Below, piece by piece: positions 1 through 13,578 of a stretch of DNA of 14,290 nt. Position 1 is the stretch's first letter, and each line of letters starts with the position of its first letter. Position numbers and translations under genes: made by a program. Origin of the DNA: a virus (taxonomy: Duplodnaviria; Heunggongvirae; Uroviricota; Caudoviricetes); the IMG/VR virus record IMGVR_UViG_2534682108_000014, positions 1-14,290 of that record. One strand, written 5' to 3'. Under the pieces are notes generated by a model that was given only the letters and a program-made list of their open reading frames with translations, was not told where the DNA came from and ran no database searches.

Positions 1-237
1 TCAGTGTGCCACTACACCACGTACAGCTCTGAACCAGGGGAATGTGATTAATTCCAGGCATTCGACGTTCTCTGTACCGCGATCAACCAAATCGCCAACC
101 GAGATAAGCAGGTCTTTTTTGGTGTCGAATCCAATCGTATCCAGTTTGTTCATCAGGTTCGTGTAGCAACCGTGCAGGTCGCCAACTACCCAAATATTTC
201 GGTATTTGCTGCCATCAATTCTTTCGTAATAGCGCAT
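1..237 (-). CDS. Serine/threonine protein phosphatase (lambda NinI / PPase-like), N-terminal 79 codons only; C-terminus lies beyond the window start
   Basis: Translation from ATG at 237 gives [37 protein letters not shown]...GDLVDRG, i.e. the metallophosphatase GDxHG and GDxVDRG motifs, and closely matches my memory of the lambda phosphatase N-terminus. RBS GGAG 8 nt upstream. The ORF-track start at 312 is an upstream in-frame extension overlapping ninH. Confidence 0.8.
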
Positions 238-421
238 CTCTTTCACTCCATCCGCGATGAACCATAAGAACGTCGTTGACGATGGCGTGCATTTTCCCGT
301 CTTTATCATCAACGTATTTTCTGACCGTACCGCGACTACATTTCAGTCTGCGTGCTACTTCTGTCTGGTTTCCGTATGCTTCAACGAGCATGTCTGGAAT
401 GGTTTTTACTGAGAACGTCAT
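215..421 (-). CDS. ninH: NinH protein (68 aa)
   Basis: 68-aa [40 protein letters not shown]... matches my memory of lambda NinH in size and sequence. Its start overlaps the ninG stop (ATGA), and it sits between ninG and the phosphatase gene. Confidence 0.85.
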
Positions 422-1029
422 GCGACCTCACTTCTGCTATTTCGCAGGTCTTTGAGTTTCTGTTGGTACTCTGCCTTGATCGCCTTGCACTCTTCGACAG
501 TCCAGCGATGGCGGTTATGGTTTGATTCGATTTCGTCTACTGCTTCCTGCCCGATGCGGCTAATAAGTTCGACGCGATACGGAACGAGATTTCCGCTTTT
601 GTGCTGGTTGCACACCACGCATTGCTTGTGAATATTGCGTTCATCAAACCGAAGTTGAGGTGCCGCAGCAGTTGTCCGGTAATGTCCGGCATCCCACTGA
701 GCAGACGTGAGCGTTCCGCACGAGATACATGGTAAGTCGCGGTCTCTTTCTCTGATGAAGGCGTTTACGGCTTGTTGGGCTTGTTTAATCCAGTAACTGC
801 GGGGCTTTAAGGCGAGTTTTCGAATCTTAAGTTTATCTTTCTGTTTCTGCTCCTCTCGTCGTCGTTTCTTCTCTGCTGCCTTTTCCGATTTTTCGCGTTC
901 TTTGCTTCGTCGTTCGAGTGCTATCTTGGTTCCACACTCTGGAGAGCACCACCACTGATTGGCGAATGCAGGGTGAAACCATTCCCGACATTCATCGTTT
1001 TTACATCGTCTTCGCGCTGGTTTAGCCAT
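418..1029 (-). CDS. ninG: NinG / Rap-family recombination-associated protein (203 aa)
   Basis: 203-aa ORF with cysteine clusters (CKNDEC...CSPEC; CISCG...CVVCNQHK) and a basic KR-rich linker, typical of NinG. Position ninF-ninG-ninH matches the lambdoid nin order. Confidence 0.88.
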
Positions 1030-1198
1030 CGTCTTCTTCCTCGTACATTGAGCTATTCGGATCGCTCATAAGTTCTGCGCAACAGTGCTCACACACGTGA
1101 ACTTCCAGCACATGCAGCTTCTGACCGCAGTTAGCGCACGTTAAAGCCCGCTCGACGCTTTCTTTCTGGTATTAAATGGATTGGGATGGGCTAAGCAT
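1022..1198 (-). pseudogene. ninF: ninF-like 58-codon frame interrupted by an in-frame TAA at codon 9
   Basis: ATG at 1198 to TAA at 1022 is exactly 59 codons and translates [57 protein letters not shown]. The in-frame stop is at 1172-1174. This is NinF-like from memory of lambda NinF, which I recall with Q at that position. Confidence 0.55.
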
Positions 1199-1556
1199 TA
1201 TTGGCGTCCTGCATCATGAGAAAGACAATCATGGCAGCGCGGAGTGGGTTTTCATCTTGAGTCATATGATATGGGGTACTATCACTGCCAACTTTTCTAT
1301 GCGCTGCCTTCCATAATCCATTTTCTGGCGCTGGAATAATGCCAATTCTGTTCTCTACGATAATCGGCTCTGCGTCTGATGGGCTTTTACAGTAATCAAC
1401 CGTTTTTATTGCATAACCAGTTTCGTCATCCCACTCAACACCAACGATTGATGTTCCCAACTTTGCGATTTCGCAATCTTCGGGAGCAAATCCACAGCAA
1501 ATTGCCACTCGCTTGTTAATTTCAAAATCACTTAACTGTGAATAATCCATTGTCAT
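1191..1556 (-). CDS. Hypothetical nin-region protein (121 aa from ATG at 1556; occupies the ninX/ninD slot)
   Basis: ORF between ninE and ninF. ATG at 1556 overlaps the ninE stop (ATGA), suggesting translational coupling. The ORF-track start at 1592 would overlap ninE by 40 nt. No family recognised from sequence alone. Confidence 0.6.
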
Positions 1557-1729
1557 TTCCTCGCACGATGTCTTAGCCACCGGATATCCCACAGGTGAGC
1601 CGTGTAGTTGAAGGTTTTTACGTCAGATTCTTTTGGGATTGGCTTGCGTTTATTTCTGGAGCGCTTCGTTGGAAGGTATTTGCAGTTTTCGCAGATGATG
1701 TCGGTGATACTTCGTCGCTGTCGTCTCAT
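1553..1729 (-). CDS. ninE: NinE protein (58 aa)
   Basis: From ATG at 1729: [58 protein letters not shown], matching my memory of lambda NinE. Start overlaps the ninB stop (ATGA). The track start at 1774 is an upstream extension inside ninB. Confidence 0.85.
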
Positions 1730-2136
1730 TCGTACCTCCTGTCGGTAAATCTGACACCCTGACCAATAGCCCATGCTGTCGTGTACTCAATCAGGCTTGC
1801 CATGCGCTTCACGCTCATCTGTGCGCTGCTTTCGCGAATGTTGACGTATTCACCTTCAAGGCCGGGCAAAACATCAGCTTCCTGTTTTGTTGCCACTGCA
1901 TGACCGCTAATTAACAAAACCTTCCATTGTTCCGGTTTTAACCATTTGCCGCACCATTGAACCTGACGAGCGATATCCGCCAGCATCGCGTGAAATTTTG
2001 CGTTCTGGTCAAGGTTGCGCTTGTAGTCAGTAATGCGGATGGTAACTGGCTTGTCTTTATCGAGTGGTGTTGCGAGGATGGCGTTGATTGCGGCTTGCTG
2101 TTGTTGTTTACCACGGAGGAAGATTGTTTGCTTCAT
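1726..2136 (-). CDS. ninB: NinB-family recombination protein (about 136 aa)
   Basis: Contains the NinB-like core ...[33 protein letters not shown]... ATG at 2136 is preceded by GAAGGAG with a 5-nt spacer. The track start at 2142 is a GTG two codons upstream. Confidence 0.75.
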
Positions 2137-2138
2137 CG

Positions 2139-2453
2139 TCACTCCTTCACTTTGACTCCAACGGCGCGGATGTTTTCCTCATAAGCATCCATTCCATCGC
2201 CGAAGCCATTGGAATAATCAACAGTAAACCCTTTGGCTAATGCTTCTCTGCTGTCGATAAACTTTGGCGCGGTTATTTCAATAGCTGATCGCGATGCCTG
2301 CCATAAAGTCCACCACTCATTTAAGGAGTGACGAATATCCATGCTTGAAAATGCGAAGTACCTATCACCATTTCTTGCCTCGGTTATCATCTCGAATGGT
2401 AATCTCAATTTTTTGGCAACGTATTCCTCAAACTGCTTTCTTGATTCGTCCAT
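2139..2453 (-). CDS. Hypothetical protein (104 aa)
   Basis: Intact ORF with ATG at 2453, RBS GAGGG upstream, stop 2 nt before the ninB start. Same strand and tight spacing as neighbours. No motif recognised. Confidence 0.6.
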   Translation of the reverse strand: MDESRKQFEEYVAKKLRLPFEMITEARNGDRYFAFSSMDIRHSLNEWWTLWQASRSAIEITAPKFIDSREALAKGFTVDYSNGFGDGMDAYEENIRAVGVKVKE

Positions 2454-2470
2454 CGATAATTACCCTCAGT

Positions 2471-2677
2471 TCAACTCACAAAACACCACGCCATTTTTGC
2501 TACAGCGACAGGCGCAACACCGATAATCACCCACATGAGAATGCTACCGAAAAGCACACCCGCCAGGTCTTTACCTTCGCCTACCAACCGGACAAAACAG
2601 ACAGCAACCACAATGAACGTCGCCACCATCCACAGAGCACCGAGAAGCCTCAATGCAGAGAAAATTAACTCAACCAC
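2471..2677 (-). CDS. Small hydrophobic protein, two predicted transmembrane helices (68 aa, GTG start)
   Basis: MVELIFSALRLLGALWMVATFIVVAVCFVRLVGEGKDLAGVLFGSILMWVIIGVAPVAVAKMAWCFVS has two about 20-residue hydrophobic stretches split by a GEGKD turn. GTG start preceded by GGGGGAGAG 6 nt upstream. Lies directly downstream of an intrinsic terminator. Confidence 0.55.
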   Translation of the reverse strand: MVELIFSALRLLGALWMVATFIVVAVCFVRLVGEGKDLAGVLFGSILMWVIIGVAPVAVAKMAWCFVS

Positions 2678-2692
2678 GATTTACTCTCCCCC

Positions 2693-2724
2693 AAATAAAA
2701 AGGCCTGCGATTACCAGCAGGCCT
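2693..2724 (-). terminator. Rho-independent terminator on the minus strand between the 89-aa gene and the small membrane-protein gene
   Basis: Minus-strand reading AGGCCTGC-TGGTAATC-GCAGGCCT followed by TTTTTATTT: 8-bp GC-rich stem, 8-nt loop, U-tract. The plus-strand reading lacks a downstream T-run. Confidence 0.6.
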
Positions 2725-2749
2725 GTTATTAACTCAGAGATGTAGATGG

Positions 2750-3019
2750 TCATTGCTTCATCTCCCTTTCCATTTCATCAATGTCAACGTCATCAGGAAG
2801 ATGGGAGCAATACGCCGCTATACCATGATGATTTATCTCATACCCTTTGAACGTTACCATCTGATGCGTAATCTCAACTTCGTTCAGGAATCCGCCATCG
2901 CATAACTGCCTGGCTATTTTCGATTTGGTCTGGATTATTGGTAGTGCCTGTTCTTTCAAAGCGTATGATATTTGTGCATCCCATGCCTTTTCGAGAATGG
3001 CTAATTGTTTTTTATTCAT
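2750..3019 (-). CDS. Hypothetical protein (89 aa)
   Basis: ATG at 3019 with strong RBS AAGGAGG 6 nt upstream. Start overlaps the helicase stop by 1 nt (TGATG). No family recognised. Confidence 0.6.
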   Translation of the reverse strand: MNKKQLAILEKAWDAQISYALKEQALPIIQTKSKIARQLCDGGFLNEVEITHQMVTFKGYEINHHGIAAYCSHLPDDVDIDEMEREMKQ

Positions 3020-4455
3020 CAGAATCCTCCTTTCTTCTTGGACTGCGGTTCCTCGCGTTCACGGCGGCGCATTTCAGCAGACTGTTGGTCTGTGTCATAA
3101 ATAGCGCCATTTGCCTGAATGCAATACACCGTGCCGGTATTGCCATGACGATTGAGGCGAAGGATTAGTTCGGTTTCACCAGGTGGAACACTGTCATCAA
3201 AAGCACCTTCACGATGGATCCCCACCCAATAATCGCAATCCTGTTCAATCTGCCCTGTATCTCGTGAGTCACTTGGTAATGGGCGTTTATTGGTTCGGCT
3301 TTCCAGTGCGCGGTTAAGCTGTGTCAGAAGCACAACAACGCAATCAAGCTCTTTGGCAAGGTTCTTCAGTCCTTTGGTGATCATGCCGTAAGCAAGGTCG
3401 TTGCGATCGGCCTTTTCAGCGGTCATTAGTGTCAGGTAATCGACCAGAATCATGCCAACACATCCTTTTTCTCGCTTGATTCGACGGCTTTCGCTGACGA
3501 TTTGAGCCAGAGATAATCCCGGCGTGTCGTCAATGTAAAGCAGGTCGATTTCACTCAAGCGATTGGCTGTTTCGATCGCCCTGTTGAAGTCACCATCGTA
3601 ATCACCCTGATAGCCGTCATCAGCGTCATTTGTCGCCGGAAGGTAAAAAATATTCGGGTTAACACCTGACTTCTGTCCTACCAGTTTTTCCAGTATCTGG
3701 TCACCGGGCATTTCAAGGCTGAACATCAGAGCGGGCTTTTTCTCATGCACTGCGCAGTTGATTGCCATCTGGCTGTATAGCGTCGTTTTCCCCATCTTAG
3801 GGCGAGCGCCAATGACAAACAGAGAGCCTTTCACCAGACCTTTCGGTGACAGCATCCTGTCCAGCGATGGGATCCCTGTGCTCATTCCTCGTTGTTCGCC
3901 TGACGGGTCAAATCGCTTCTCAAGGTCGCTAACCCAGTCTTCCATGACCTCACCAAATGAGCGAAGGCCGCGACGCGATCCGGTTTTTGCATGGTCTGTC
4001 AGTTGCGTGAAAATCGCCTGAATAGCTTCGTACTTCTGCGTTGCAGTCATTCCGTTGCGGGAATAGAGCAATTCCGTCGCTTCAGTCATGCGGTTGATGG
4101 CGTAGCGTTCCATTGCGGTTTCACGAACCTGCATTGCATAGGCAACGATGTTTGCTGCGCTTGGCGTGTTCTTTGCGATCTCAGCGATATAAGCAAAACC
4201 GCCAACAGACACCGTTAACGATTTACGCTCCAGTTCATCGAAAAGCGTCAGGCCATCTACTGGCTTTTGCTCACGGTGCATTCTGGTTATTTCTTCGAAA
4301 ATGATTTTGTGTGGTCGGCTGTAAAATGAATCAGGCTTCAGCATCGCCAGGACTTTCTGGACGCGCTCACTGCTGTCATCATCCAGAAGCAATCCACCAA
4401 TCACCGCCTGCTCTGCCTCGATGCTATGGGGCGGCGCATAAAAATTATCGGTCAT
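3019..4455 (-). CDS. Replicative DNA helicase, DnaB family (phage P22 gene 12-like), about 478 aa
   Basis: Walker A GARPKMGKTT, Walker B-like ILVDYLTLM, and DnaB-type N-terminal SIEAEQAVIGGLLLD. ATG at 4455 is preceded by GAGGGTG; the track start at 4470 is a GTG extension. Confidence 0.93.
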   Translation of the reverse strand: MTDNFYAPPHSIEAEQAVIGGLLLDDDSSERVQKVLAMLKPDSFYSRPHKIIFEEITRMHREQKPVDGLTLFDELERKSLTVSVGGFAYIAEIAKNTPSAANIVAYAMQVRETAMERYAINRMTEATELLYSRNGMTATQKYEAIQAIFTQLTDHAKTGSRRGLRSFGEVMEDWVSDLEKRFDPSGEQRGMSTGIPSLDRMLSPKGLVKGSLFVIGARPKMGKTTLYSQMAINCAVHEKKPALMFSLEMPGDQILEKLVGQKSGVNPNIFYLPATNDADDGYQGDYDGDFNRAIETANRLSEIDLLYIDDTPGLSLAQIVSESRRIKREKGCVGMILVDYLTLMTAEKADRNDLAYGMITKGLKNLAKELDCVVVLLTQLNRALESRTNKRPLPSDSRDTGQIEQDCDYWVGIHREGAFDDSVPPGETELILRLNRHGNTGTVYCIQANGAIYDTDQQSAEMRRREREEPQSKKKGGF

Positions 4456-5335
4456 CGTGTTCACCCTCACGAACTTTCAGGTAGGTATTATCGTTAAGCA
4501 GGAAATCAAATCCCTTTTTGTGCCAGACGGTTCCGCGTTGATGGTTTGGACGCTCTTCGAACATCCATCGGCAATTTTCGCCTACGTAGCTCAAATAATT
4601 TCTCCAGTCCTGCATCGTGAACCCATGCCCGTCAAGCTGGCGGGTTATCACTCCGGCTTTGCGCCAGAACGTTCGGATCTGGTTTTTACGCTTGTCATTC
4701 AGTGCGCGGATTTTTGGCGCTTCAGGAAGGATTTCGTGGTAAGCATCGACAACATCCTGACAGCTAACGGAAGGTTTTTTCTTGTCAGACTTTTTGTCTG
4801 CTGCGGTACTCTCTAATACGTCAGTATTAGAGATATTATTTATATTATTGTTTATGGACAACCGTTGGACAACCGTTGGACAATCTCCGCTGAGAGCCGC
4901 GCCATTACTGGTGTTTGCGTTGGGCAACCGTTGGACAACCGTTGGACAATTTTTTGCCTGAAAATCGTCATATTTAACGATTGTAAACAGGCTAAATTTC
5001 TTCCCCATCGAGCAAATATTAAGCATACCTTTCGACTCAAAAGTCCGTAATAAGCTCCGAACTTTGTTGTCGGGGATGAATGTTTCTCTGACCAGCGACG
5101 GGCGTCCAGTTATCATCTGACCGCGATCAACAGTTATCGGCCCGATATCCGTATTGACGACAGTAGATTCGTGATTAGCCTTGAGGATTAAGTGAAGCCA
5201 AAGATGTACTGCCTGAGAGTCCTTATAGAGCCTGCTGTCCATAAACTGGCGGTGTATAGAGACATACCCCATACTGGATGCCTCCTGATGTTGTACAGGG
5301 TTATGCCTGTAATCAGCTAACTTAACGACGCCCAT
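4445..5335 (-). CDS. Replication initiation protein, lambda O-like (P22 gene 18-like), 296 aa, containing the origin
   Basis: Sits immediately upstream of the DnaB-type helicase; RBS AGGAGTG before ATG 5335. The coding sequence carries ori-type iterons, translated as the repeated peptide CPTVVQRL. Family assignment is by organisation plus recollection of O/gp18 proteins. Confidence 0.85.
   Translation of the reverse strand: MGVVKLADYRHNPVQHQEASSMGYVSIHRQFMDSRLYKDSQAVHLWLHLILKANHESTVVNTDIGPITVDRGQMITGRPSLVRETFIPDNKVRSLLRTFESKGMLNICSMGKKFSLFTIVKYDDFQAKNCPTVVQRLPNANTSNGAALSGDCPTVVQRLSINNNINNISNTDVLESTAADKKSDKKKPSVSCQDVVDAYHEILPEAPKIRALNDKRKNQIRTFWRKAGVITRQLDGHGFTMQDWRNYLSYVGENCRWMFEERPNHQRGTVWHKKGFDFLLNDNTYLKVREGEHDDR
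4815..4950. repeat. Replication origin: AT-rich tract (4815-4852) plus six approximately 11-bp iterons GGACAACCGTT in two clusters (4855-4887 and 4922-4950) inside the O-like gene
   Basis: Direct reading: ggacaaccgtt ggacaaccgtt ggacaatctcc, a 34-bp spacer, then gggcaaccgtt ggacaaccgtt ggacaattttt. Adjacent attagagatattatttatattattgtttat is AT-rich. Layout (iterons then AT-rich, in the O reading direction) mirrors lambda ori. Confidence 0.8.
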
Positions 5336-5483
5336 GTTTCACTCCTGCTTTGGCTAGTCTGTAAACACCAACAAGGCGCTCTGCGAACGCCCTGTTATTT
5401 GCTGCGGCTACCACTAATCCCTCAGGTGAATCAGGGTGTCGAATCTCTTCTTTTTCCTGGTATTTCTTACGACGTTTTGTCAT
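5322..5483 (-). CDS. Small basic hypothetical protein (53 aa) between the cII-like and O-like genes
   Basis: ATG at 5483 with RBS AGGAG 6 nt upstream; translates MTKRRKKYQEKEEIRHPDSPEGLVVAAANNRAFAERLVGVYRLAKAGVKHGRR. Its stop overlaps the O-like start. Below the ORF-track size cutoff, so a manual call. Confidence 0.4.
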   Translation of the reverse strand: MTKRRKKYQEKEEIRHPDSPEGLVVAAANNRAFAERLVGVYRLAKAGVKHGRR

Positions 5484-5517
5484 AATTACTCCTGTGGATT
5501 GATCCAGTCTTTCTACA

Positions 5518-5796
5518 TCAGGCCTCGAAGAATTCGCCGTTCTTCGGGGCTTTTTCTTTTGTCAGCATTCTGGCTACTTTCTTAGCCAGTTCCGCCAACT
5601 CCTCGTCTTCAACACCCCATTCAAGAACAGCCAGAAGCATGGCCATCTTTGGGATAAAGCTGTCTTTCCATCGCGAAATTTGCGATTCATTAATCCCTAA
5701 CGCGTCGGCAACCTTTCGCTGACCACGTACAGCAATTCGATTCAGGATGTTGCTTGTAATTGCATTCGCTTTCTTGCGAGTACTTGTAAGTTCCAT
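5518..5796 (-). CDS. c1: CII-family transcriptional activator (P22 C1-like), 92 aa
   Basis: From ATG 5796: MELTSTRKK...GINESQISRWKDSFIPKMAMLLAVLEWGVEDEEL, carrying the conserved CII core SQISRWK...IPK...MLLAVLEWGV. RBS AAGGAAA 7 nt upstream. The track start at 5883 is an upstream extension across the cro-cII spacer. Confidence 0.85.
   Translation of the reverse strand: MELTSTRKKANAITSNILNRIAVRGQRKVADALGINESQISRWKDSFIPKMAMLLAVLEWGVEDEELAELAKKVARMLTKEKAPKNGEFFEA
5522..5560 (+). terminator. Rho-independent terminator on the plus strand, antisense to the 3' end of the cII-like gene (candidate terminator of an OOP-like antisense RNA)
   Basis: GCCTCGAAGAA-TTCGCCG-TTCTTCGGGGC followed by TTTTTCTTTT: 11-bp stem with one mismatch, then a U-tract, on the plus strand only. 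Position is analogous to lambda terminator to. Confidence 0.5.
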
Positions 5797-5810
5797 ATGT
5801 AAGTATTTCC
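5774..5810 (+). promoter_or_regulatory. Candidate PRE (CII-activated establishment promoter) pointing toward cro/c2
   Basis: TTGC-gagtac-TTGT on the plus strand at 5774-5787 matches the TTGC-N6-TTGC CII/C1 site with one mismatch. It lies inside the first codons of the cII-like gene in the opposite orientation, as lambda pRE does. The -10 is weak, as expected for an activator-dependent promoter. Confidence 0.4.
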
Positions 5811-5829
5811 TTAACAAATAAGAAGTTAT

Positions 5830-5847
5830 GCGCATCAACTTATGCGC
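5830..5847 (-). other. Hairpin between nutR and the cII-like gene (possible tR1-like pause/termination element)
   Basis: GCGCAT-caactt-ATGCGC is a 6-bp inverted repeat with a 6-nt loop, followed on the minus strand by a U-rich but interrupted tract. Position matches lambda tR1; the structure alone is weak evidence. Confidence 0.3.
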
Positions 5848-5855
5848 GTTGTATT

Positions 5856-5898
5856 CCCGCATTTCGGCGGGAATGAGGACCATGACTGTTAAAGAGCA
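5856..5898 (-). promoter_or_regulatory. nutR: boxA (5887-5898) plus boxB hairpin (5856-5871) just downstream of cro
   Basis: Minus-strand reading TGCTCTTTAACA (boxA, same core as the E. coli rrn boxA), a 15-nt spacer, then CCCGCCGAAATGCGGG (5-bp stem, GAAA-containing loop). The same boxA core and an identical boxB recur downstream of PL. Confidence 0.65.
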
Positions 5899-5904
5899 AT
5901 TTGC

Positions 5905-6090
5905 TTATGCCGCTTTGCGGTAAGCGCTTTCTTGATACTTCAGGGCGCCAGCTGTAACGACTTCCAGTCGATAGGCGTCTTTCTCTGGGATGACTTCCTT
6001 CCACTGAGAGACTGCTGCGTCGCTAATGCCTAACGCTTTAGCTACAGCACGCTGGGTTCCGAAGTGGTCGATAACATCTTTCTTGTACAT
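5905..6090 (-). CDS. cro: Cro repressor, P22-type (61 aa)
   Basis: MYKKDVIDHFGTQRAVAKALGISDAAVSQWKEVIPEKDAYRLEVVTAGALKYQESAYRKAA matches P22 Cro almost residue for residue as I recall it; HTH QRAVAKALGISDAAVSQW. Divergent from the repressor gene across the operator region. Confidence 0.93.
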   Translation of the reverse strand: MYKKDVIDHFGTQRAVAKALGISDAAVSQWKEVIPEKDAYRLEVVTAGALKYQESAYRKAA

Positions 6091-6104
6091 AGACTCGCTC
6101 CGAA

Positions 6105-6170
6105 ATTAAAGAACACTTAAATTATCCACTAAAGGAATCTTAAGTCAAGTTTATTTAAGATGTCTTAACT
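6105..6170. promoter_or_regulatory. OR region: three 18-bp P22-type operators (6105-6122, 6128-6145, 6153-6170) with PR (minus strand, toward cro) and PRM (plus strand, toward c2)
   Basis: All three sites fit ANTNAAG-N4-CTTNANT: ATTAAAGaacaCTTAAAT, ACTAAAGgaatCTTAAGT, ATTTAAGatgtCTTAACT. Minus-strand PR reads -35 TTGACT (6143-6148) and -10 GATAAT (6121-6126) with 16-bp spacing. The third operator abuts the c2 ATG, implying a short or leaderless PRM transcript. Confidence 0.75.
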
Positions 6171-6821
6171 ATGAAAACTCAATTGATGGGAGAGCGCATT
6201 CGCGCTCGGAGAAAAGAACTCAAGATCAGGCAGGCCGCACTTGGAAAGATGGTCGGCGTGTCTAATGTTGCCATATCTCAGTGGGAACGCTCTGAGACAG
6301 AGCCAAATGGAGAGAATCTTCTCGCCCTGGCTAATGCGTTGAAGTGTTCCCCTGACTATCTGATGAAAGGAGAGGAAAGTCTTTCAAACATTGCCTATCA
6401 CAGTAGGCATGATCCAAGAGGGTCATACCCTCTGATTAGCTGGGTGAGCGCAGGATGCTGGATGGAAGCTGTAGAACCATATCATAAGCGTGCAATAGAT
6501 AACTGGTACGATACAACCGTAGACTGTTCAGAAGATTCGTTTTGGTTGGACGTGAAGGGAGACTCAATGACGGCTCCGGCCGGTCTCAGTATCCCTGAAG
6601 GAATGATAATACTCGTCGATCCTGAAGTAGAGCCGCGTAACGGGAAACTGGTAGTTGCAAAGCTCGAAGGAGAAAACGAGGCAACTTTCAAGAAGTTAGT
6701 TATTGATGCAGGCAGGAAGTTTCTAAAACCACTTAACCCACAATATCCGATGATCGAGATCAACGGAAACTGCAAAATCATCGGCGTAGTTGTCGATGCA
6801 AAACTAGCAAACCTTCCATAA
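6171..6821 (+). CDS. c2: Prophage repressor, P22 C2-type (216 aa), LexA-like autocleavable
   Basis: MKTQLMGERIRARRKELKIRQAALGKMVGVSNVAISQWERSETEPNGENLLALANAL... matches P22 C2 near-identically from memory and has the same length. N-terminal HTH, Ala-Gly cleavage region, and C-terminal S24-type GDSM serine with a downstream lysine. Confidence 0.96.
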   Translation: MKTQLMGERIRARRKELKIRQAALGKMVGVSNVAISQWERSETEPNGENLLALANALKCSPDYLMKGEESLSNIAYHSRHDPRGSYPLISWVSAGCWMEAVEPYHKRAIDNWYDTTVDCSEDSFWLDVKGDSMTAPAGLSIPEGMIILVDPEVEPRNGKLVVAKLEGENEATFKKLVIDAGRKFLKPLNPQYPMIEINGNCKIIGVVVDAKLANLP

Positions 6822-6846
6822 GGGGGCATTCGCCCCTTTTTTTTAT
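6822..6846 (+). terminator. Rho-independent terminator downstream of c2
   Basis: GGGGC-ATTC-GCCCC followed by TTTTTTTT, starting 1 nt after the c2 stop codon. Confidence 0.8.
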
Positions 6847-6887
6847 TTCCTTTAAAAATCAAAGCCAAACTTAAGTTACGAAAGAAA

Positions 6888-6940
6888 ATTTAAGTTTTCT
6901 TCAAAAATACTCTTGACCATTAATTAAAGAGATCTTAAAT
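6888..6940. promoter_or_regulatory. OL/PL region: P22-type operator at 6923-6940, weaker site at 6888-6905, and PL promoter (plus strand)
   Basis: ATTAAAGagatCTTAAAT (6923-6940) is a perfect fit to the operator pattern; ATTTAAGttttCTTCAAA (6888-6905) has one mismatch. PL reads -35 TTGACC (6913-6918) and -10 TTAAAT (6935-6940) with 16-bp spacing, the -10 lying inside the operator. Confidence 0.65.
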
Positions 6941-6986
6941 TTAAGCCATCAGCAGGACGCTGGTAGCCAAACGGAACAGATTGGCA

Positions 6987-7027
6987 GGCTCTTTAACATT
7001 GATGGGATTGTCCCGCCGAAATGCGGG
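6987..7027 (+). promoter_or_regulatory. nutL: boxA (6987-6998) plus boxB hairpin (7012-7027) in the PL leader
   Basis: GGCTCTTTAACA, a 13-nt spacer, then CCCGCCGAAATGCGGG. The boxB is identical to the nutR one on the other strand, and the boxA core GCTCTTTAACA is shared. Confidence 0.62.
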
Positions 7028-7339
7028 AACCAAAGAGTAGTTGGCTTTGGGGTGACGTGAAGTGCAGCTGCACGACGGCAACCGGAAGATAAGCACCCGG
7101 CGCGTCACCGCCAAAGTCAATTCCATAGGCGAAATGCAGCCGCCAAACACAGCCAATGCTGCACATGCAACAGGAGGATTTATGTGAATGCATAACTTCA
7201 AAACCGAGGTTAATTAAATCTCTCGATCCGAGCATTGACCTATTAGGTGGCGAGATGCTCTTTCTGCCCCTCAGTTCGAGGGGCCAGAAACCACTTTGCA
7301 ATCACTATCAATTCCAAAGTTGTTTCATCGGAGGTCAAC

Positions 7340-7612
7340 ATGACAGTAGTCATTACATATCTGGCTGACGATAACGCCAGAAATCGCCGCAGAGCACGCA
7401 GACAGGCTCAACGTGAACAGGCAATGCAAGAGCAGCGACTGACGCGAAAAATTGCGCTAAAGCTCTCTGGTTGCGTCAGAGCAGATAAAGCAGCATCACT
7501 CGGAAGCCTTCGCTGTAAGGAAGAAGATGAACGCAGTGGAAGTATTTGCCTGCCAAACGTAGCCATTTACGCGGCAGGATACCGGAAATCAAAACAACTG
7601 ACGGCGAGGTAA
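7340..7612 (+). CDS. 24: N-like transcription antiterminator (P22 gene 24-like), 90 aa
   Basis: From ATG 7340 (RBS GGAGG): MTVVITYLADDNARNRRRARRQAQREQ... with an N-terminal arginine-rich motif, and a C-terminus LPNVAIYAAGYRKSKQLTAR resembling P22 gp24 as I recall it. Lies downstream of PL/nutL. The track start at 7247 is an upstream extension. Confidence 0.85.
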   Translation: MTVVITYLADDNARNRRRARRQAQREQAMQEQRLTRKIALKLSGCVRADKAASLGSLRCKEEDERSGSICLPNVAIYAAGYRKSKQLTAR

Positions 7613-7615
7613 GTG

Positions 7616-7840
7616 ATGAATCAGACATACATTCCATCATGCTTGAGAAATCTGCCAAAGCAGAAAGCAAAGCCCCGCAAGCAAGCCATAAAGGACGCTA
7701 AGGCAGAGGTTATTGATCAAGCAATACAATTGCTCAGGGAGGAGTTAAGAAGTGGCAAGCTCGAAGGAATGATGATGCCATATCAGCGCGGATATCTATC
7801 GGCGATTAGTAAGTTGGAAGTATTGAAGAGTGAATTATGA
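7616..7840 (+). CDS. Hypothetical protein (74 aa), lysine-rich N-terminus
   Basis: ATG at 7616 begins 4 nt after the N stop, with GAGG 7 nt upstream. Same strand as the PL operon. No family recognised. Confidence 0.55.
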   Translation: MNQTYIPSCLRNLPKQKAKPRKQAIKDAKAEVIDQAIQLLREELRSGKLEGMMMPYQRGYLSAISKLEVLKSEL

Positions 7841-7902
7841 ACTATCTGGAATTTCCGGATGGTTCATTGTTTTGGCAGCAAACCACTTATTTGAGGTGAT
7901 AT

Positions 7903-8154
7903 ATGGAATTTCATGAAAGTGCGATTTGTGATTTTCGCGCTAACGCAAATTCAGTAAAACAACAGCCAATTGCAGTTCTTTTTAAAACAATGGGTGCGTG
8001 GGCTGTTTTATGCTTCGCCGCTGACGACACTGACGCAAGAATGGCAATAGGCCAAGAGATGGAGATGGATCCGACAAACGATGAATTCATAATTTATGGC
8101 GCTCCATCTAATTACTTACTTGATACCTGCAACATTTACAACAAGGCTGCCTGA
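7903..8154 (+). CDS. Hypothetical protein (83 aa)
   Basis: ATG at 7903 preceded by GAGGTGATAT. Acidic, cysteine-containing, no recognisable motif. Confidence 0.55.
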   Translation: MEFHESAICDFRANANSVKQQPIAVLFKTMGAWAVLCFAADDTDARMAIGQEMEMDPTNDEFIIYGAPSNYLLDTCNIYNKAA

Positions 8155-8213
8155 TGGTGGTCTTTATTTTTTAGCCGTAAATAATTTCATGCTTATTACA
8201 ATCAAGGTGATAT

Positions 8214-8579
8214 ATGGAAGAACAAGCAAACAAGATTCTCGTAGAACTACTGCAAAAAGCCAGCAATGGAATAGACGCGGCTGTTTCATTTAGCCAGGCA
8301 CAGATTCCTGATGTCATCCATCAGCTTTTGATGTGGCACGCCGTATCATCAGCTGGAATTCAGGCTATCTGTGTATTGGTGATTATAGCGTGTGTTTATC
8401 TGATGATTTTTGCATGGAATAAAGGAGATGATGCAGATATTGTTCTTTCATCACTACTTGTCACATCAGGAATAGCGATTACTTCTATTGTTGTTTTCTT
8501 CAATTATTTCGACTGGCTGAAAATTTGGCTTGCTCCAAAACTTTACCTTATCGAATATGCAGCATCATTGGTTAAGTAA
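8214..8579 (+). CDS. Hypothetical membrane protein (121 aa) with two predicted transmembrane helices
   Basis: ATG at 8214 preceded by AAGGTGATAT. Hydrophobic segments AGIQAICVLVIIACVYLMIFAW and LLVTSGIAITSIVVFFNYF follow an amphipathic N-terminal region. Confidence 0.6.
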   Translation: MEEQANKILVELLQKASNGIDAAVSFSQAQIPDVIHQLLMWHAVSSAGIQAICVLVIIACVYLMIFAWNKGDDADIVLSSLLVTSGIAITSIVVFFNYFDWLKIWLAPKLYLIEYAASLVK

Positions 8580-8638
8580 TTTCAGGACGCATAGTCGGCC
8601 TTTATTTTTGGCACAAACAACAGAATAAACACTGCACT

Positions 8639-8666
8639 GTGTATTCATTCCAACGAGTGAATACAC
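8639..8666 (+). other. Long hairpin / inverted repeat (12-bp arms, 4-nt loop) in the intergenic region upstream of the c3-like gene
   Basis: GTGTATTCATTC-caac-GAGTGAATACAC gives 12 pairs counting one G-U in RNA (one mismatch as DNA). No U-tract follows, so it is not an intrinsic terminator. Confidence 0.5.
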
Positions 8667-8728
8667 GGAGCAATGTCGCTCGTAACTAAACAGGAGCCGA
8701 CTTGTTCTGATTATTGGAAATCTTCTTT

Positions 8729-8754
8729 GCCCTCCAGTGTGAGGGCCTTTTTAT
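8729..8754 (+). terminator. Rho-independent terminator within the PL operon, upstream of the c3-like gene
   Basis: GCCCTC-cagtgt-GAGGGC followed by CTTTTTTAT on the plus strand. Confidence 0.6.
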
Positions 8755-8818
8755 ATGCATACCAATAACGCTTCACTCGAGGCGTTTTCGTTATGCAATC
8801 AAATATAAGGAGTTACCC

Positions 8819-8953
8819 ATGATGCACTTTCAGTTCGCGGGTAGCGGCGTCATGTCCGCTTTCTACCCGCACGAATCTGAATTATCACGCCGAGTTAAAC
8901 AATTAATAAGAGCAGCAAAGAAACAACTGGAGGCGTTATGCGCAATGAAATAG
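8819..8953 (+). CDS. c3: CIII-like small protein (44 aa), putative FtsH-inhibitor that would stabilise CII
   Basis: From ATG 8819 (RBS AAGGAG, 5-nt spacer): MMHFQFAGSGVMSAFYPHESELSRRVKQLIRAAKKQLEALCAMK. This shares the lambda CIII pattern AG..V...P.ES.L.R...L.....K.L as I recall it. The track ORF starting at 8714 spans the terminator and is rejected. Confidence 0.5.
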   Translation: MMHFQFAGSGVMSAFYPHESELSRRVKQLIRAAKKQLEALCAMK

Positions 8954-9090
8954 CCATCAATCACCAGATGCTTCGTGCGGCACAAAACAAAGCAGTAATA
9001 GCCAGATTTATTGGTGATTCCAAAATGTGGCTTGAAGCAAATAAAGCGATGAAATCAGCTATCAACCTTCCGTGGTATCGCAGGAAATGA
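8938..9090 (+). CDS. Small hypothetical protein (50 aa), in the kil/arf position of P22-like phages
   Basis: ATG 8938 with GGAGG 4 nt upstream, overlapping the c3-like 3' end. Translates MRNEIAINHQMLRAAQNKAVIARFIGDSKMWLEANKAMKSAINLPWYRRK. Below the ORF-track cutoff; positional inference only. Confidence 0.4.
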   Translation: MRNEIAINHQMLRAAQNKAVIARFIGDSKMWLEANKAMKSAINLPWYRRK

Positions 9091-9245
9091 GTTTTACAGA
9101 TAACTGGTCAGACGAAGAATTCATTCGTCAGATGAAAGAATTAATCGGTAACGAAGGAGATATTCATGTCACTTGCAACCACAGTGAAGGAGAGCAAGTT
9201 ACAGAGACGCATGTACACGCAGAAAGCTCTCTGGTATCGCCATAA
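9087..9245 (+). CDS. Small acidic hypothetical protein (52 aa)
   Basis: ATG 9087 overlaps the preceding stop (ATGA), suggesting coupling; the RBS is poor. Translates MSFTDNWSDEEFIRQMKELIGNEGDIHVTCNHSEGEQVTETHVHAESSLVSP. Confidence 0.35.
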   Translation: MSFTDNWSDEEFIRQMKELIGNEGDIHVTCNHSEGEQVTETHVHAESSLVSP

Positions 9246-9346
9246 TGGCGACCGCGAAGGAATGCGGGTATGCCTTAATTTGTCCCGAGTCGAAGTATTA
9301 AATCAGCGTTATTTCCTTGGGCCTTGTCCATTCTGAGAACAAACAT

Positions 9347-9952
9347 ATGAGCAAAGAATTTTACGCAAGACTGGCTGCTATTCAGGAGAATCTGAACGCG
9401 CCAAAAAATCAGTACAACTCATTCGGCAAATATAAATACAGAAGCTGCGAAGATATTCTTGAAGGCGTTAAGCCGTTACTGAATGGTCTGTTTTTATCAA
9501 TCAGCGATGAAGTTGTGTTGATTGGTGATCGGTATTACGTGAAAGCCACGGCAACTATTACCGATGGCGAAAACAGTCATACGGCAACCGCTCTTGCACG
9601 AGAGGAAGAAAGCAAGAAAGGAATGGATTCTGCACAAGTTACGGGAGCCACAAGCTCTTATGCACGCAAGTATTGCCTCAATGGTTTGTTCGGCATTGAT
9701 GATGCGAAAGATGCAGATACCGACGAGCATAAACATCAGCAGAACGCAGCAGCAAAGCAATCAAAACCATCACCTACACCTGAACAGGTTCTAAAAGCAT
9801 TCACTGACGCAGCATTGCAGAAAAACACCGTGGAAGAGCTTAAACAGGCGTTCGCCAAAGCGTGGAAGATGCTCGAAGGCACACCGGAGCAGCACAAAGC
9901 GCAGGACGTTTACAACATCAGACGAGACGAATTAGAAGGAGCTGCTGCTTAA
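9347..9952 (+). CDS. erf: Erf, essential recombination function protein (single-strand annealing protein), 201 aa
   Basis: From ATG 9347: MSKEFYARLAAIQENLNAPKNQYNSFGKYKYRSCEDILEGVKPLLNGLFLSISDEVVLIGDRYYVKATATITDGENSH... matches P22 Erf closely from memory. The track start at 9317 is a TTG extension. Confidence 0.9.
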   Translation: MSKEFYARLAAIQENLNAPKNQYNSFGKYKYRSCEDILEGVKPLLNGLFLSISDEVVLIGDRYYVKATATITDGENSHTATALAREEESKKGMDSAQVTGATSSYARKYCLNGLFGIDDAKDADTDEHKHQQNAAAKQSKPSPTPEQVLKAFTDAALQKNTVEELKQAFAKAWKMLEGTPEQHKAQDVYNIRRDELEGAAA

Positions 9953-10335
9953 TGGCACATTCGATTACTGTAAGACTAAACAAGCCCGCAAGAGAGTTTC
10001 AGGCCGGGGAAAATATCGGATTCAACATCCGTGCTGGCGTTCAGTATTACGATCGCCAGACAAAAAAGAAAGAATGGACAAACTACAGCGCCGTTGTATT
10101 TGCCAAGCCTGGAGCGCAAGCTGATTACTACCGTAGTGTTCTTGTTGAAGGTGGCATTGTAGAAATTACCGGAGAAAACATCAGGGTTGATGTTTATCAG
10201 GGGCAAAATGGTCAATCAATCACTCTTGAATTACTGAATGCAAAGATTGGATTTGCAACTTCAGGAAACAGCCAACAGCAGCAAAGTAGCAATCATCAAA
10301 ATCATCCTGAATACGACGATTCAATTCCCTTCTAA
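9952..10335 (+). CDS. Single-stranded DNA-binding protein-like (short SSB with acidic C-terminal tail), 127 aa
   Basis: ATG 9952 overlaps the erf stop (TAATG). The C-terminus ...QQQQSSNHQNHPEYDDSIPF resembles the SSB signature tail DDDIPF after a Q-rich linker, and the N-terminal region has an SSB-like pattern (W.NYSAVVFAK ... VEGG.VEITG). The track start at 9862 lies inside erf. Confidence 0.6.
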   Translation: MAHSITVRLNKPAREFQAGENIGFNIRAGVQYYDRQTKKKEWTNYSAVVFAKPGAQADYYRSVLVEGGIVEITGENIRVDVYQGQNGQSITLELLNAKIGFATSGNSQQQQSSNHQNHPEYDDSIPF

Positions 10336-10358
10336 AGTAGCAACATAAGGATTCCATT

Positions 10359-10652
10359 ATGCCAGCGCCTCTGTATGGTGCGGATGACCCGCGCCGCTGT
10401 TCCGGCAATTCCGTATCGGAGGTGCTGGATAAATTCAGAAAAAACTACGACCGGATAATGTCTCTACCGCAGGAAACGAAAGAGGAAAAGGAATTTCGCC
10501 ACTGTATATGGCTTGCAGAGAAAGAAGAACGCGAGCGAATTTACCAGACATCAATCCGCCCATTCCGCAAAGCCACATATACCCACTTCCCTGAAATTGA
10601 CCCGCGCCTGCGTAATTACCGCTCACGCTATGGCGCTATCAGTAATGACTGA
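10359..10652 (+). CDS. Hypothetical protein (97 aa); by position could be an anti-RecBCD abc-type gene, but not recognised
   Basis: ATG 10359 with AAGGA 7 nt upstream. No motif recognised; the functional guess is positional only (downstream of erf). Confidence 0.55.
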
Positions 10653-10662
10653 GGAATTTACC

Positions 10663-10827
10663 ATGAGAGGACTTGCATACAATCCCGGCATTCTTCCGGC
10701 AGAAATGATTATTCGACAACGCGTAAAGCCAATGCCATCGAGAGAGGAATTGCTTAAGAGAAAGAGTTTCGGTTCTGTTAATGACAACAAATATCTGAAT
10801 GCGATGTGGCGGAGTGGGAAGAAATGA
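10663..10827 (+). CDS. Small hypothetical protein (54 aa)
   Basis: ATG 10663 with GAGGAA 7 nt upstream: [54 protein letters not shown]. The track ORF starting at 10513 is a long upstream extension overlapping the previous gene in another frame. Confidence 0.45.
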
Positions 10828-11216
10828 AACAAATGACACTAATTGAGATGGATGGATTTCTGAAAGGTAAATGCATTCCACGAGATTTAAAGGTTAACGA
10901 AACAAACGCTGAATATCTGGTGCGTAAATTTGCTGAAGCGGAGGCCAAGTGCGCGGCGCTGGCTGCGGAGAATGCGGCGCTGAAGAAGTTCTGCAAAGAC
11001 GCTGCATTCGATGCCGATTACGAAGCAGAGCTAGGTATGGAGCGTGGTGGATTCAGTGATGCACTTAACGATATCGAAACCACAGCCACCGACGCTTTCT
11101 TGGCTGAAGTACGGGCGCAGGGCGTGGAGATGTTTGCTGACCATCTGTTGTGCCCAAACCTTGATGACACTATCCGTGACTTTGCTGCCCAGCTTCGCAA
11201 AGGAGTGCAGTCATGA
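10824..11216 (+). CDS. Hypothetical protein (130 aa), alanine-rich helical segment
   Basis: ATG 10824 overlaps the upstream stop (ATGA). Contains [20 protein letters not shown], suggestive of a helical or coiled-coil segment. Confidence 0.55.
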
Positions 11217-11575
11217 AAAGAGAGCCGAAAAAAACTGTGAAGATTAAGCGTTTCCGCTACTCACTTGATTGGTTCACCGTTGATGACGTTGAGTGCGAAG
11301 TCGGCAATGGATTCAGCTACGAAATGCAGTTTCGTCTCGGGGCATGGTATCTGATGGGGAAATATTACGATTACAAGGCTGAGCAGTGGTACGAGGATTA
11401 TAGAAAATCATTCCAGCTGGAATGCCCAGCGGAAGCCGTTATTGCTCTTGGTAATAGCCTGACGAAGTTCAGCAGACTTCACGACTGTGACCACCTGACT
11501 GAACACCTCGCTAAACTGCTGAAAGGCGTTGCTTCGCGCATTGCTATTAGTGAAGCAGAAGGAGGCAACCAGTGA
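11213..11575 (+). CDS. Hypothetical protein (120 aa)
   Basis: ATG 11213 overlaps the upstream stop (ATGA), with AAAGGAG 7 nt upstream. No motif recognised. Confidence 0.6.
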   Translation: MKREPKKTVKIKRFRYSLDWFTVDDVECEVGNGFSYEMQFRLGAWYLMGKYYDYKAEQWYEDYRKSFQLECPAEAVIALGNSLTKFSRLHDCDHLTEHLAKLLKGVASRIAISEAEGGNQ

Positions 11576-12180
11576 GCAAGATTGATTATCAAAAGCTTCG
11601 TGAAATCGCTGAAAAAACAAAAATTGCTGGTGAAGCACCTGTAATGCCTTTCGATCAGCGAATTAATGCGCTTAACGATTTTATGAAGCACTTTTCGCCA
11701 GATATCGCGCTGGCATTGTTGGATGAACGGGAAAGAAACCAGCAATACATCAAATCCCGCGACCAGGAGAACGAGGATATTGCGCTAACGGTAGGGAAGC
11801 TGCGCGTTGAGCTGGAAGGCAAAGACAGCAAAATAGCCAATCTTACCGCCGAACGCGATGCTCTTCGTGAAGGTGAGATGGGCGACGCTAGGCATAGCAA
11901 CACACGGGCCGCAGCTGATATCTACTTCCAACTGGTCGAGGAGTGCGAAATTCCTGCTGGCGGTTCTCTGGTCGAGTACGTTGACGATATGCGCGAGAAG
12001 CTGGAAGCCGCAGAGAAGCGCATTGCAGAACTGGAAGCGCGGGAAATACTGCTCCCGGAACGTAGCAGCATGCTTCATCGAACAGATTTTCACGATGATT
12101 ACCAAACGGTAATGGCATACAAAGTTTCTGAGGTCATCGATGCAATCCGCGCCGCTGGCATTCGCATCAAAGGAGAGTGA
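11572..12180 (+). CDS. Hypothetical coiled-coil protein (202 aa), ea-region type
   Basis: GTG 11572 overlaps the upstream stop (GTGA), preceded by strong GAAGGAGG. Central heptad-like region KLRVELEGKDSKIANLTAERDALREGE ... LEAAEKRIAELEARE. Confidence 0.6.
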   Translation: MSKIDYQKLREIAEKTKIAGEAPVMPFDQRINALNDFMKHFSPDIALALLDERERNQQYIKSRDQENEDIALTVGKLRVELEGKDSKIANLTAERDALREGEMGDARHSNTRAAADIYFQLVEECEIPAGGSLVEYVDDMREKLEAAEKRIAELEAREILLPERSSMLHRTDFHDDYQTVMAYKVSEVIDAIRAAGIRIKGE

Positions 12181-12181
12181 G

Positions 12182-12373
12182 ATGAATGGACAAATATCAA
12201 TTGTTCGACCTGGAGCATGTGACGATTGCGAGATACGAATGATTATTCGTCTGGCAATGGGGAAAACAATAACTGCTCTCATTACTCCAGAAAATCTCGC
12301 ATTGGCATTAACCGGAAAGTCAGACCTGCCAGTAGAGCTAAAGCTGCGAAATGTTGAGATTAAGGTGAAATAG
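12182..12373 (+). CDS. Small hypothetical protein (63 aa)
   Basis: ATG 12182 sits 1 nt after the upstream stop, with AAGGAGAG upstream: MNGQISIVRPGACDDCEIRMIIRLAMGK... The track start at 12140 lies inside the previous gene. Confidence 0.5.
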   Translation: MNGQISIVRPGACDDCEIRMIIRLAMGKTITALITPENLALALTGKSDLPVELKLRNVEIKVK

Positions 12374-12374
12374 C

Positions 12375-12971
12375 ATGAATTCTATTACCAAAGAACGTAT
12401 TGAATTGTTCATTAAAGATCCGCTTGAAAACGGGCTTACTCGTGGCGAACAAATGGAACTGGCACGAATTGCACTGGCATCACTGGAACGCGAACAGATT
12501 CGCCACGAGCATGCCAAATGGTCTGACTCCACATTTGGCTGCGTTGGCCCCATTGGTCCGCTGAAACATCTCTCAAAAGAGGCTCTGGAAGCCGCAGCCG
12601 AACCAGACGATCTTAGCGAGTGGGCTGATATGCAGTTTCTGTTGTGGGATGCACAGCGCCGTGCTGGCATCAGCGATGCTGAAATTACCGCTGCTATGGA
12701 AGATAAATTGAAGATCAACATGGAGCGCCAGTGGCCTGAGCCAAAAGATGGTGAGCCTCGCTTGCACATTAAAGAACCCGGCAACTATCCGGCAACTCCG
12801 GATGGTTGGGTTATGGTGCCGAAGGAGTTAACCCCGGAAATGATGAGAGCCGTTCAGATTAGAAGTGAGCTTGGAGGGTATGCCACTTCCAATCTATCTG
12901 GTGCATACAATATGTTTTCTGAGTTCTGGAATGTTGCTGTCTCAGCTGCGCCTAAGGTGGATGATTTATGA
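12375..12971 (+). CDS. Hypothetical protein (198 aa)
   Basis: ATG 12375 sits 1 nt after the upstream stop, with AAGGTGA 6 nt upstream. No motif recognised. Confidence 0.6.
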   Translation: MNSITKERIELFIKDPLENGLTRGEQMELARIALASLEREQIRHEHAKWSDSTFGCVGPIGPLKHLSKEALEAAAEPDDLSEWADMQFLLWDAQRRAGISDAEITAAMEDKLKINMERQWPEPKDGEPRLHIKEPGNYPATPDGWVMVPKELTPEMMRAVQIRSELGGYATSNLSGAYNMFSEFWNVAVSAAPKVDDL

Positions 12972-13270
12972 ATCTATATCGCTGCCCATTCTGTGGTTCC
13001 ACTGTGCTTAACATCGGATACTCATTCAATATCAGAGGGAAAATGCGCTATGTGTCATGCAAATGTGGTGCCCAAGGACCAGAAAAACGAACTAAATCTG
13101 AAGCGATTTCTTCATGGAATAGTCGAATGAAAGTATGGGTTTATGATCCAGAAACCATATTAAACGCTGAAGAGCGCAGGAGAACGGAAGTCTATATTCA
13201 TAACCTTAATGAAGATGGATTTACACCAGTGCTTGTAAAGGCTACTCCGCAGGAGGTTAACCATGGCTAA
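12968..13270 (+). CDS. Lar-family restriction alleviation protein-like (100 aa; Lar-like N-terminal zinc-ribbon domain plus C-terminal extension)
   Basis: N-terminus MNLYRCPFCGSTVL...YVSCKCGAQGP...SEAISSWNSR shows the CPFCG...C.CG...A...WN.R pattern I associate with the Lar (Rac prophage) family. ATG overlaps the upstream stop (ATGA); RBS AAGGTGG. Confidence 0.6.
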   Translation: MNLYRCPFCGSTVLNIGYSFNIRGKMRYVSCKCGAQGPEKRTKSEAISSWNSRMKVWVYDPETILNAEERRRTEVYIHNLNEDGFTPVLVKATPQEVNHG

Positions 13271-13547
13271 CCTACAACTTGCCGTCAAAGGTGAATACTT
13301 CGATGCCATGATTCGCAGAGAGAAAACGGAAGAGTATCGCCTGTGTAATGACTATTGGAATAAGCGCCTCGTTAACCGTAAGTATGACCGCCTGATTATC
13401 ACAAAGGGATATCCGAAGCGCGACGACTTCAGTCGCAGAATTGATGTTCCGTATGACGGATATGAAATCAAGACAATCACACATCCCCACTTCGGCGATA
13501 AACCGGTAAAGGTGTTCGCGATAAAGGTGAATATCGGCAATGAATAA
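13263..13547 (+). CDS. ASCH/PUA-like domain protein (94 aa), tentative
   Basis: N-terminus LQLAVKGEYFDAMIRREKTEEYR resembles the ASCH-domain opening pattern (I.KPEYFD.I..G.KT.E.R). ATG 13263 preceded by AGGAGG. Confidence 0.45.
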   Translation: MANLQLAVKGEYFDAMIRREKTEEYRLCNDYWNKRLVNRKYDRLIITKGYPKRDDFSRRIDVPYDGYEIKTITHPHFGDKPVKVFAIKVNIGNE

Positions 13548-13551
13548 CAAT

Positions 13552-13578
13552 CCTCGCACTCGCGGGGATTTCTTTTAT
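13552..13578 (+). terminator. Possible weak intrinsic terminator after the ASCH-like gene
   Basis: CCTCGC-actc-GCGGGG (6-bp stem including one G-U) followed by the U-rich ATTTCTTTTAT. Confidence 0.3.

Follow-up and report, generated by a model that had tools for sequence, protein, structure and literature searches.

The window, a 14,290-nt stretch of viral DNA comprising positions 1 to 14,290 of the IMG/VR record IMGVR_UViG_2534682108_000014, very probably carries a standard lambdoid oop gene in its short P22/Sf6 form, lying next to a separate gene of the gp53 family. On the plus strand, a predicted promoter, pO, is followed by a predicted antisense RNA of 63-66 nt, whose end would be set by an intrinsic terminator within the final codons of cII; on the minus strand, a 53-aa basic ORF lies between cII and an O-like gene. 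Both the oop gene and the small ORF are real, ordinary and documented earlier, the layout cII-oop-orf-O having been published in 2012 (Hayes et al., PMC3349717), and our analysis is in this sense a rediscovery.

The early region and the predicted promoter pO

The window corresponds to the early region of a phage or prophage of lambdoid (P22/Sf6-like) type, in the orientation opposite to the lambda map. On the plus strand lies a cI-type repressor (6171-6821), and the minus strand carries a P22-type cro (5905-6090), a cII-like transcriptional activator gene (5518-5796; Pfam Phage_CII, 2.5e-42, residues 1-91 of 91), the 53-aa ORF (5322-5483), an O-like replication initiator (4445-5335; PHROG 345, E = 1.8e-84) with iterons at 4855-4961, and a DnaB-like helicase (3019-4470). 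The nin genes occupy the left side of the window, and Erf and SSB the right, pL side. A 121-aa cII ORF in the ORF list is an upstream extension, the real cII being 5518-5796. Mosaicism of the usual kind limits each phage record to at most about 51% of the window; among the partial matches, IME10, HK106, HK633 and Sf6 are the best (97-98% identity), and a 651-nt stretch around the oop locus is 99.2% identical to IME10 and 98.8% to mEpX2. When a 301-nt query spanning the locus was compared with 5,426 complete Escherichia coli genomes, 958 gave matches, some of them partial, and 271 covered at least 80% of the query. The locus sequence is present in hundreds of phage records and in the prophages of about one-sixth of complete E. 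coli genomes.

The promoter was located by its similarity to a 33-bp block that spans pO and the oop 5' end and is conserved across lambdoid phages (Hayes et al. 2012, PMC3349717). Window positions 5476-5508 on the plus strand match the reverse complement of this published block at 33/33 positions; this is its single exact occurrence in the window, and 200 shuffles gave 0 matches. The block is also a mosaic "boundary sequence," and in the Sf6 record the homologous block is annotated "bsq5 boundary sequence." Within it lies the extended -10 element TGTCATAAT (TGT CATAAT; 5478-5486, plus strand), identical to lambda TTTGTCATAAT, with the hexamer CATAAT at 5481-5486 and TG at -15/-14. Read in reverse complement, the CAT of this -10 gives the start codon of the next gene, which is the 53-aa ORF here and O in lambda. 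In the alignment with lambda, window positions 5476-5507 read TTTGTCATAATTACTCCTGTGGATTGATCCAG and the lambda leftward strand reads TTTGTCATAATGACTCCTGTTGATAGATCCAG; the aligned lambda segment consists of pO and the first bases of oop, and, judged from this alignment, the predicted window promoter is the homologue of lambda pO. An earlier note on this DNA had seen no convincing promoter and had left the start of the RNA unresolved, a gap that pO now fills. A generic sigma-70 scan of the window did not call pO, so the promoter was found by homology only; promoter-like sites in that scan were fewer than in shuffled sequence (8 vs. 21.0 ± 5.2).

Upstream of the -10, the element TGGTAT (5458-5463, plus strand) would serve as a weak -35 with a 17-bp spacer, and coincides with codons 8-9 (Tyr-Gln) of the 53-aa ORF; CTGGTA (5457-5462), with an 18-bp spacer, is an alternative. 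The -35 is poor, agreeing with the consensus at 2-3 of 6 positions. In the curated P22 record, the homologous TGGTCA is annotated as the -35 of the oop promoter, and seven phages keep TGGTNN at a distance of 17 (18) bp from the -10, including two (of Erwinia and Cronobacter) in which the start codon has shifted by 3-4 nt and one codon has been lost. At the pO position, divergent phages carry TATAAT, TAAAAT or CATACT as the -10-like hexamer, and in such phages from Erwinia, Cronobacter and Enterobacter the hexamer keeps its distance to TGGTNN. No synonymous site of the codons TAC CAG GAA AAA varies among five diverged gp53-type ORFs, whereas other synonymous sites are saturated; the orf48 family, otherwise unrelated, shares these YQ[ED]K codons with the gp53-type ORFs, and more distant gp53 relatives lack them. 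In this small sample, the invariance of the codons in the Tyr-Gln region probably reflects a nucleotide-level constraint imposed by pO.

The predicted oop RNA and its terminator

Two candidate starts follow pO, namely, G5494, the equivalent of lambda +1, and G5497, where the sequenced P22 oop RNA begins. Because the P22 5' end was read 3 nt downstream of the lambda-equivalent +1, the precise start is uncertain. Homology to lambda, P22 and BTP1 thus predicts an oop (OOP-like) antisense RNA of 63-66 nt on the plus strand, running from 5494/5497 to ~5559. In lambda, cII ends at 38653, and from the 77-nt length of OOP and its 55-nt overlap with cII the 5' pppG of OOP is derived as 38675, the counterpart of window G5494 in the alignment. 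The 63-nt P22 oop RNA, GAUUGAUCCAG...GGCUUUUCUUU, aligns with window 5497-5559. Minimum free energy (MFE) structures place a 5' stem-loop at 5494-5516. The complementarity of the predicted RNA is perfect over the final 42 nt of cII (5518-5559; codons 80-92 plus the stop codon) and over the 21-24-nt spacer that follows cII on the pR transcript, and the RNA stops one base before reaching the AGGAG belonging to the 53-aa ORF. With a start at G5494-G5497, past the start codon and ribosome-binding site of the 53-aa ORF, the RNA would therefore not overlap this ORF; only pO does, within the first nine codons. The earlier note's expectation that the antisense RNA would overlap both genes is consequently not supported, unless a further promoter exists upstream.

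The intrinsic terminator, corresponding to "to," lies at 5520-5560 on the plus strand, with its stem at 5520-5552 and its U-run at 5553-5560. In the terminator scan, it has a stem of 14 pairs (6 G-C), a loop of 5 and the tail TTTCTTTTGT, and it ranks first among the terminator-like sites of the window, which as a class are about twofold enriched (30 vs. 14.3 ± 4.0 in shuffles). For the 70-nt stretch 5493-5562, the folding energy is -27.7 kcal/mol (z = -5.4); none of 200 shuffles was as stable. The hairpin reaches -20.0 kcal/mol on the plus strand compared to -12.6 on the minus strand, a difference of ~7 kcal/mol due to three G-U pairs, and a U-run follows it on the plus strand only. Since both features are strand-specific, the terminator should halt leftward transcripts and let the pR message pass. 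With the cII stop codon at 5518-5520, it sits within the last 13 cII codons. The strong plus-strand terminator antisense to the end of cII described in the earlier note is confirmed, the coordinates in that note being accurate to within 2 nt, and the OOP-like RNA proposed to end there is supported by sequence and homology.

Together, the 5'-end block, the position and orientation of the locus, and the predicted hairpin plus intrinsic terminator are all those of OOP. An Rfam search of the whole window (E ≤ 1) gave no hits; no OOP model was matched, so this result is no argument against OOP, and the window received no RNA call because oop is not in Rfam. Marking the gene has some annotation value, as oop goes unmarked in most phage and PGAP records.

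We then compared oop alleles. Viral contigs were scanned for the 33-bp block, giving at least 120 loci, which together with phage records contain 40 distinct 85-nt bodies falling into two classes: a long, lambda/HK97-like class of ~77 nt and a short, P22/Sf6-like class of 63-66 nt, to which the window allele belongs. We folded 13 representative alleles, three of which come from divergent phages (of Erwinia, Cronobacter and Enterobacter) without an exact copy of the block. Each of the 13 forms a 5' hairpin and a terminator followed by a U-run. Among six short-class alleles, the terminator stems are kept through compensatory changes (G-C, A-U and U-A at the sixth pair; C-G vs. U-A at the fifth), and the Erwinia phage allele retains its 5' stem through a G-C to A-U change plus two one-sided changes. 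Stems were compared by folding each sequence separately, since a MAFFT alignment of the short-class alleles displaced the 3' arm of the terminator.

By sequence and homology, RNA polymerase would start at pO, using the extended -10 and weak -35, initiate at G5494-G5497 and stop at 5520-5560, yielding a 63-66-nt RNA with two hairpins. By analogy with lambda, where OOP acts through RNase III and lowers cII expression (PMC3349717, PMC2327240, PMC12197685) and where papers citing Krinke and Wulff credit them with RNase III-dependent cleavage of cII mRNA, the oop RNA may pair with the end of the cII message and the adjoining spacer to form double-stranded RNA that would be cut by RNase III. The cut cII message would then decay, CII would fall and the decision would tilt to lytic growth.

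A different emphasis is that pO and the terminator serve mainly DNA-level or replication-linked roles, such as transcription near the origin or insulation of cII-cro-cI from leftward transcription, with the RNA having little effect on cII. In lambda, oop transcription combined with the ori iterons gives a replication-inhibition phenotype for which antisense control of cII does not account (PMC3349717); pO has been tied to the control of replication initiation (PMC3985674 and the review PMC12197685); and the effect of OOP is modest in some assays, with only a minor part in CII removal after SOS induction (PMC2327240). Nevertheless, the alleles agree in retaining the RNA body and its complementarity to cII, and the terminator always lies inside cII, never in the spacer, so that the antisense overlap is retained. 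Plasmid-made OOP, moreover, gives clear, cII-minus plaques even on a lambda/P22 hybrid (PMC3349717). We therefore regard a mainly replication-linked role as improbable and favor an antisense RNA directed at cII. Less probable still is a longer plus-strand transcript that begins within the cII-O interval or the O-like gene and is antisense to the entire 53-aa ORF as well as to the cII end: a promoter-like site at 5088-5116 (CTGACC-17-TATCAT, 9/12) could feed the same terminator but carries no weight because such sites are rarer in the window than in shuffles, and this reading is opposed by the conserved pO block, which puts the start at 5494-5497, by P22 small-RNA sequencing, which at this locus gave only the 63-nt species, and by lambda OOP, a self-terminating 77-nt RNA (PMC3349717).

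The 53-aa ORF

The 53-aa basic ORF described in the earlier note stands as read: it lies at 5322-5483 on the minus strand, begins with ATG and has a good ribosome-binding site, the Shine-Dalgarno sequence AGGAG (5489-5493) lying 5 nt upstream of the start codon. The product has a pI of 10.7, with 14 K+R vs. 6 D+E. The ORF overlaps the start of the O-like gene (ATG 5335-5333) by 14 nt, and the O-like gene has its own GGAG inside the ORF. From this arrangement, the 53-aa ORF would be a gene of the pR early operon whose ribosome-binding site and ATG are those that serve O in lambda, and translation would read from it into the O-like gene through the 14-nt overlap.

That note had regarded the ORF as unexpected, but its product is 100% identical to HK97 gp53 and Sf6 gp42, shares 94% identity with ES18 gp58, and is present in the annotation of dozens of phages. 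It matches PHROG 1331 over residues 1-53 of 53 (E = 1.4e-37), and the gp53 family is found in 97 phage records and also in Escherichia, Salmonella, Cronobacter, Enterobacter, Citrobacter, Lelliottia and Erwinia. The gene is omitted in some records, e.g., IME10 and ENT47670. A profile search of 1.84 billion representative proteins returned 24 small relatives. Searches of Pfam (E ≤ 10), NCBIfam and PDB sequences with the protein gave no matches. Its AlphaFold model, of low confidence (pLDDT 67.6), consists of a disordered basic N terminus and two helices, and gave 0 matches in a Foldseek search against the PDB.

In comparisons with the homologues from Cronobacter, Erwinia and Enterobacter phages, dN/dS was 0.06-0.15, with dS ≥ 1 (saturated). 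Because such values indicate strong purifying selection, we consider the 53-aa ORF a real protein-coding gene. The product has a conserved core, HPDSPxGLVVAA..N..FAERL.G..RLAKAGVK.GRR, of which the part as far as RLAKAG occupies the middle of the ORF. It is highly improbable that the ORF has no function as a protein, with its frame kept by nucleotide constraints (pO and the O ribosome-binding site) or with the ORF acting as a translated leader for O: both of its ends overlap other signals, the family is tiny and without a known domain or a confident model, and lambda does without the ORF (PMC3349717), but the low dN/dS extends over the whole ORF with saturated synonymous sites, the conserved core lies away from both overlaps, and a leader for O is not obviously required since O has its own GGAG.

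Membership of the 53-aa protein in DUF2740, the Pfam family of P22 orf48, was rejected, as the protein has no Pfam match at E ≤ 10 and orf48 scores 8.9e-29. Homology between gp53 and orf48 was likewise rejected beyond the first 11 residues, since BLASTP aligns residues 1-11 only. A functional study was not found in the literature searched for orf48, gp53, DUF2740 and hkaW; the "orf48" (gnarl1) of the preprint by Silas et al. carries a library number and was not linked to P22 orf48.

The gp53-type ORF is always accompanied by the first ten O codons (MGVVKLADYR), joined to at least four different O bodies. One speculative and rather unlikely reading is that it constitutes a portable adaptor cassette, combining a basic helical protein that may act in replication initiation or in the lysis-lysogeny decision, a coupling of O translation to its own, and an OOP synthesis made sensitive to transcription and translation through the 5' end of the ORF, which carries the -35 region of pO; the searched literature gave no test of these roles in any phage.

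Comparison with known systems

The window RNA resembles lambda OOP in genomic place and orientation and in having the -10 element TTTGTCATAAT overlap the start codon of whichever gene follows cII. The first ~20 nt of the two RNAs are near-identical, and both have two hairpins and end at an intrinsic terminator that falls within the cII 3' end. In contrast, the window RNA is the shorter (63-66 vs. 77 nt), which is due to a 15-nt gap in the region of the first hairpin; its terminator differs in sequence; and it overlaps cII by 42 nt, compared to the last 55 nt in lambda (PMC3349717). The -35 elements also differ (TGGTAT in the window, TTGAGT in lambda), since the gene upstream of the promoter is the 53-aa ORF rather than O.

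Closer likenesses are found in P22 and BTP1, whose oop RNAs share the short class and the length of the window RNA. The P22 oop, first described by Backhaus and Petri (1984), is annotated in the P22 TPA record as "promoter oop" and "terminator oop" at positions homologous to those of the window, and the 63-nt P22C-oop was seen by small-RNA sequencing in infected samples only (653 and 1513 RPM). It has the 5' part and the architecture of the window RNA, but its upper terminator stem is unlike that of the window, with compensatory substitutions. OOP^BTP1 is among the non-coding RNAs of the BTP1 prophage transcriptome (Owen et al. 2020); its coordinates were not found in the supplements of that study, and the BTP1 sequence is identical to window 5497-5565. 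In both phages, the small ORF upstream of the promoter is orf48 (DUF2740), not of the gp53 type as in the window.

The 53-aa ORF itself shares its slot and its 14-nt overlap with O with HK97 gp53, Sf6 gp42 and ES18 gp58, from which it shows no substantive difference. P22 orf48, HK022 orf48 and HK620 hkaW (Pfam DUF2740), small proteins that like gp53 are strongly conserved, occupy the same slot between oop and O; they have in common with the 53-aa ORF the ribosome-binding site and ATG, the overlap with the O start and the N-terminal MTK..YQ[ED]K, and are otherwise unrelated to it in sequence.

Linkage of the small ORF to the start of O

In the slot between cII and the O-like gene, a small ORF is either of the gp53 type (HK97 gp53/Sf6 gp42 family), as is the 53-aa ORF of the window (5322-5483, minus strand), or of the type of P22 orf48. 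Across positions 5305-5483 of the window and the viral-contig loci L013-L132, which were collected by a scan for the conserved block of oop, the predicted OOP-like antisense RNA, and its promoter pO, every gp53-type ORF overlapped by 14 nt a downstream O gene whose product starts with MGVVKLADYR. Beyond these ten residues, the O proteins were of at least four different types. One of these, found in the loci, was a lambda-type O body with its own first 18 residues replaced. In the same loci, O began with MSN[LI] after every orf48-type ORF, with an 8-nt overlap. Each ORF type occurred with both the long and the short oop class in the window and loci. By sequence comparison, then, the small ORF acts as a single mosaic cassette together with the ~10 codons that open O.

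Possible coding constraint from pO

The synonymous sites of TAC CAG GAA AAA (5457-5469 on the plus strand; codons 5-9 of the 53-aa ORF) were unchanged in five diverged gp53-type homologues. The spacing of this region to the pO -10 was maintained even where the start codon had shifted. Furthermore, YQ[ED]K was common to the gp53-type ORF and the unrelated orf48 family. Together, these observations suggest constraint on the 53-aa coding sequence from the -35 region of pO.

Gene starts and public annotation

The true start of cII is the ATG at 5796, giving a 92-aa product with a full-length match to Phage_CII. A 121-aa frame from the ORF finder (5518-5883, minus strand) was rejected; its 29-codon upstream extension, across the nutR/tR1 region, is an artefact.

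The small cII-O ORF, of either type, is unannotated in IME10 (NC_019501), ENT47670 (NC_019927) and BTP1 (LT714109). Among the phage records retrieved, oop is annotated only in that of P22 (BK000583), whose feature names recur for P22-pbi (AF527608) in the table of matches.

CII-box-like repeats and origin iterons

Two plus-strand CII-box-like repeats, TTGCTTGTAATTGC (5750-5763) and TTGCGAGTACTTGT (5774-5787), lie within the 5' end of cII; the window holds three such motifs, a chance-level count. TTGCTTGTAATTGC, positioned 24 nt upstream of TTGCGAGTACTTGT, is the closer of the two to TTGC-N6-TTGC. The P22 and Sf6 records mark, at pRE, a C1/CII binding site to which TTGCGAGTACTTGT is homologous; TTGCTTGTAATTGC carries no annotation in them. 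Inside the O-like gene, origin-like TGGACAACCGT iterons (4855-4961) form two clusters of three repeats with 11-nt spacing, the clusters being 44 nt apart, in agreement with the feature marked as rep_origin in the Sf6 and HK620 annotations.
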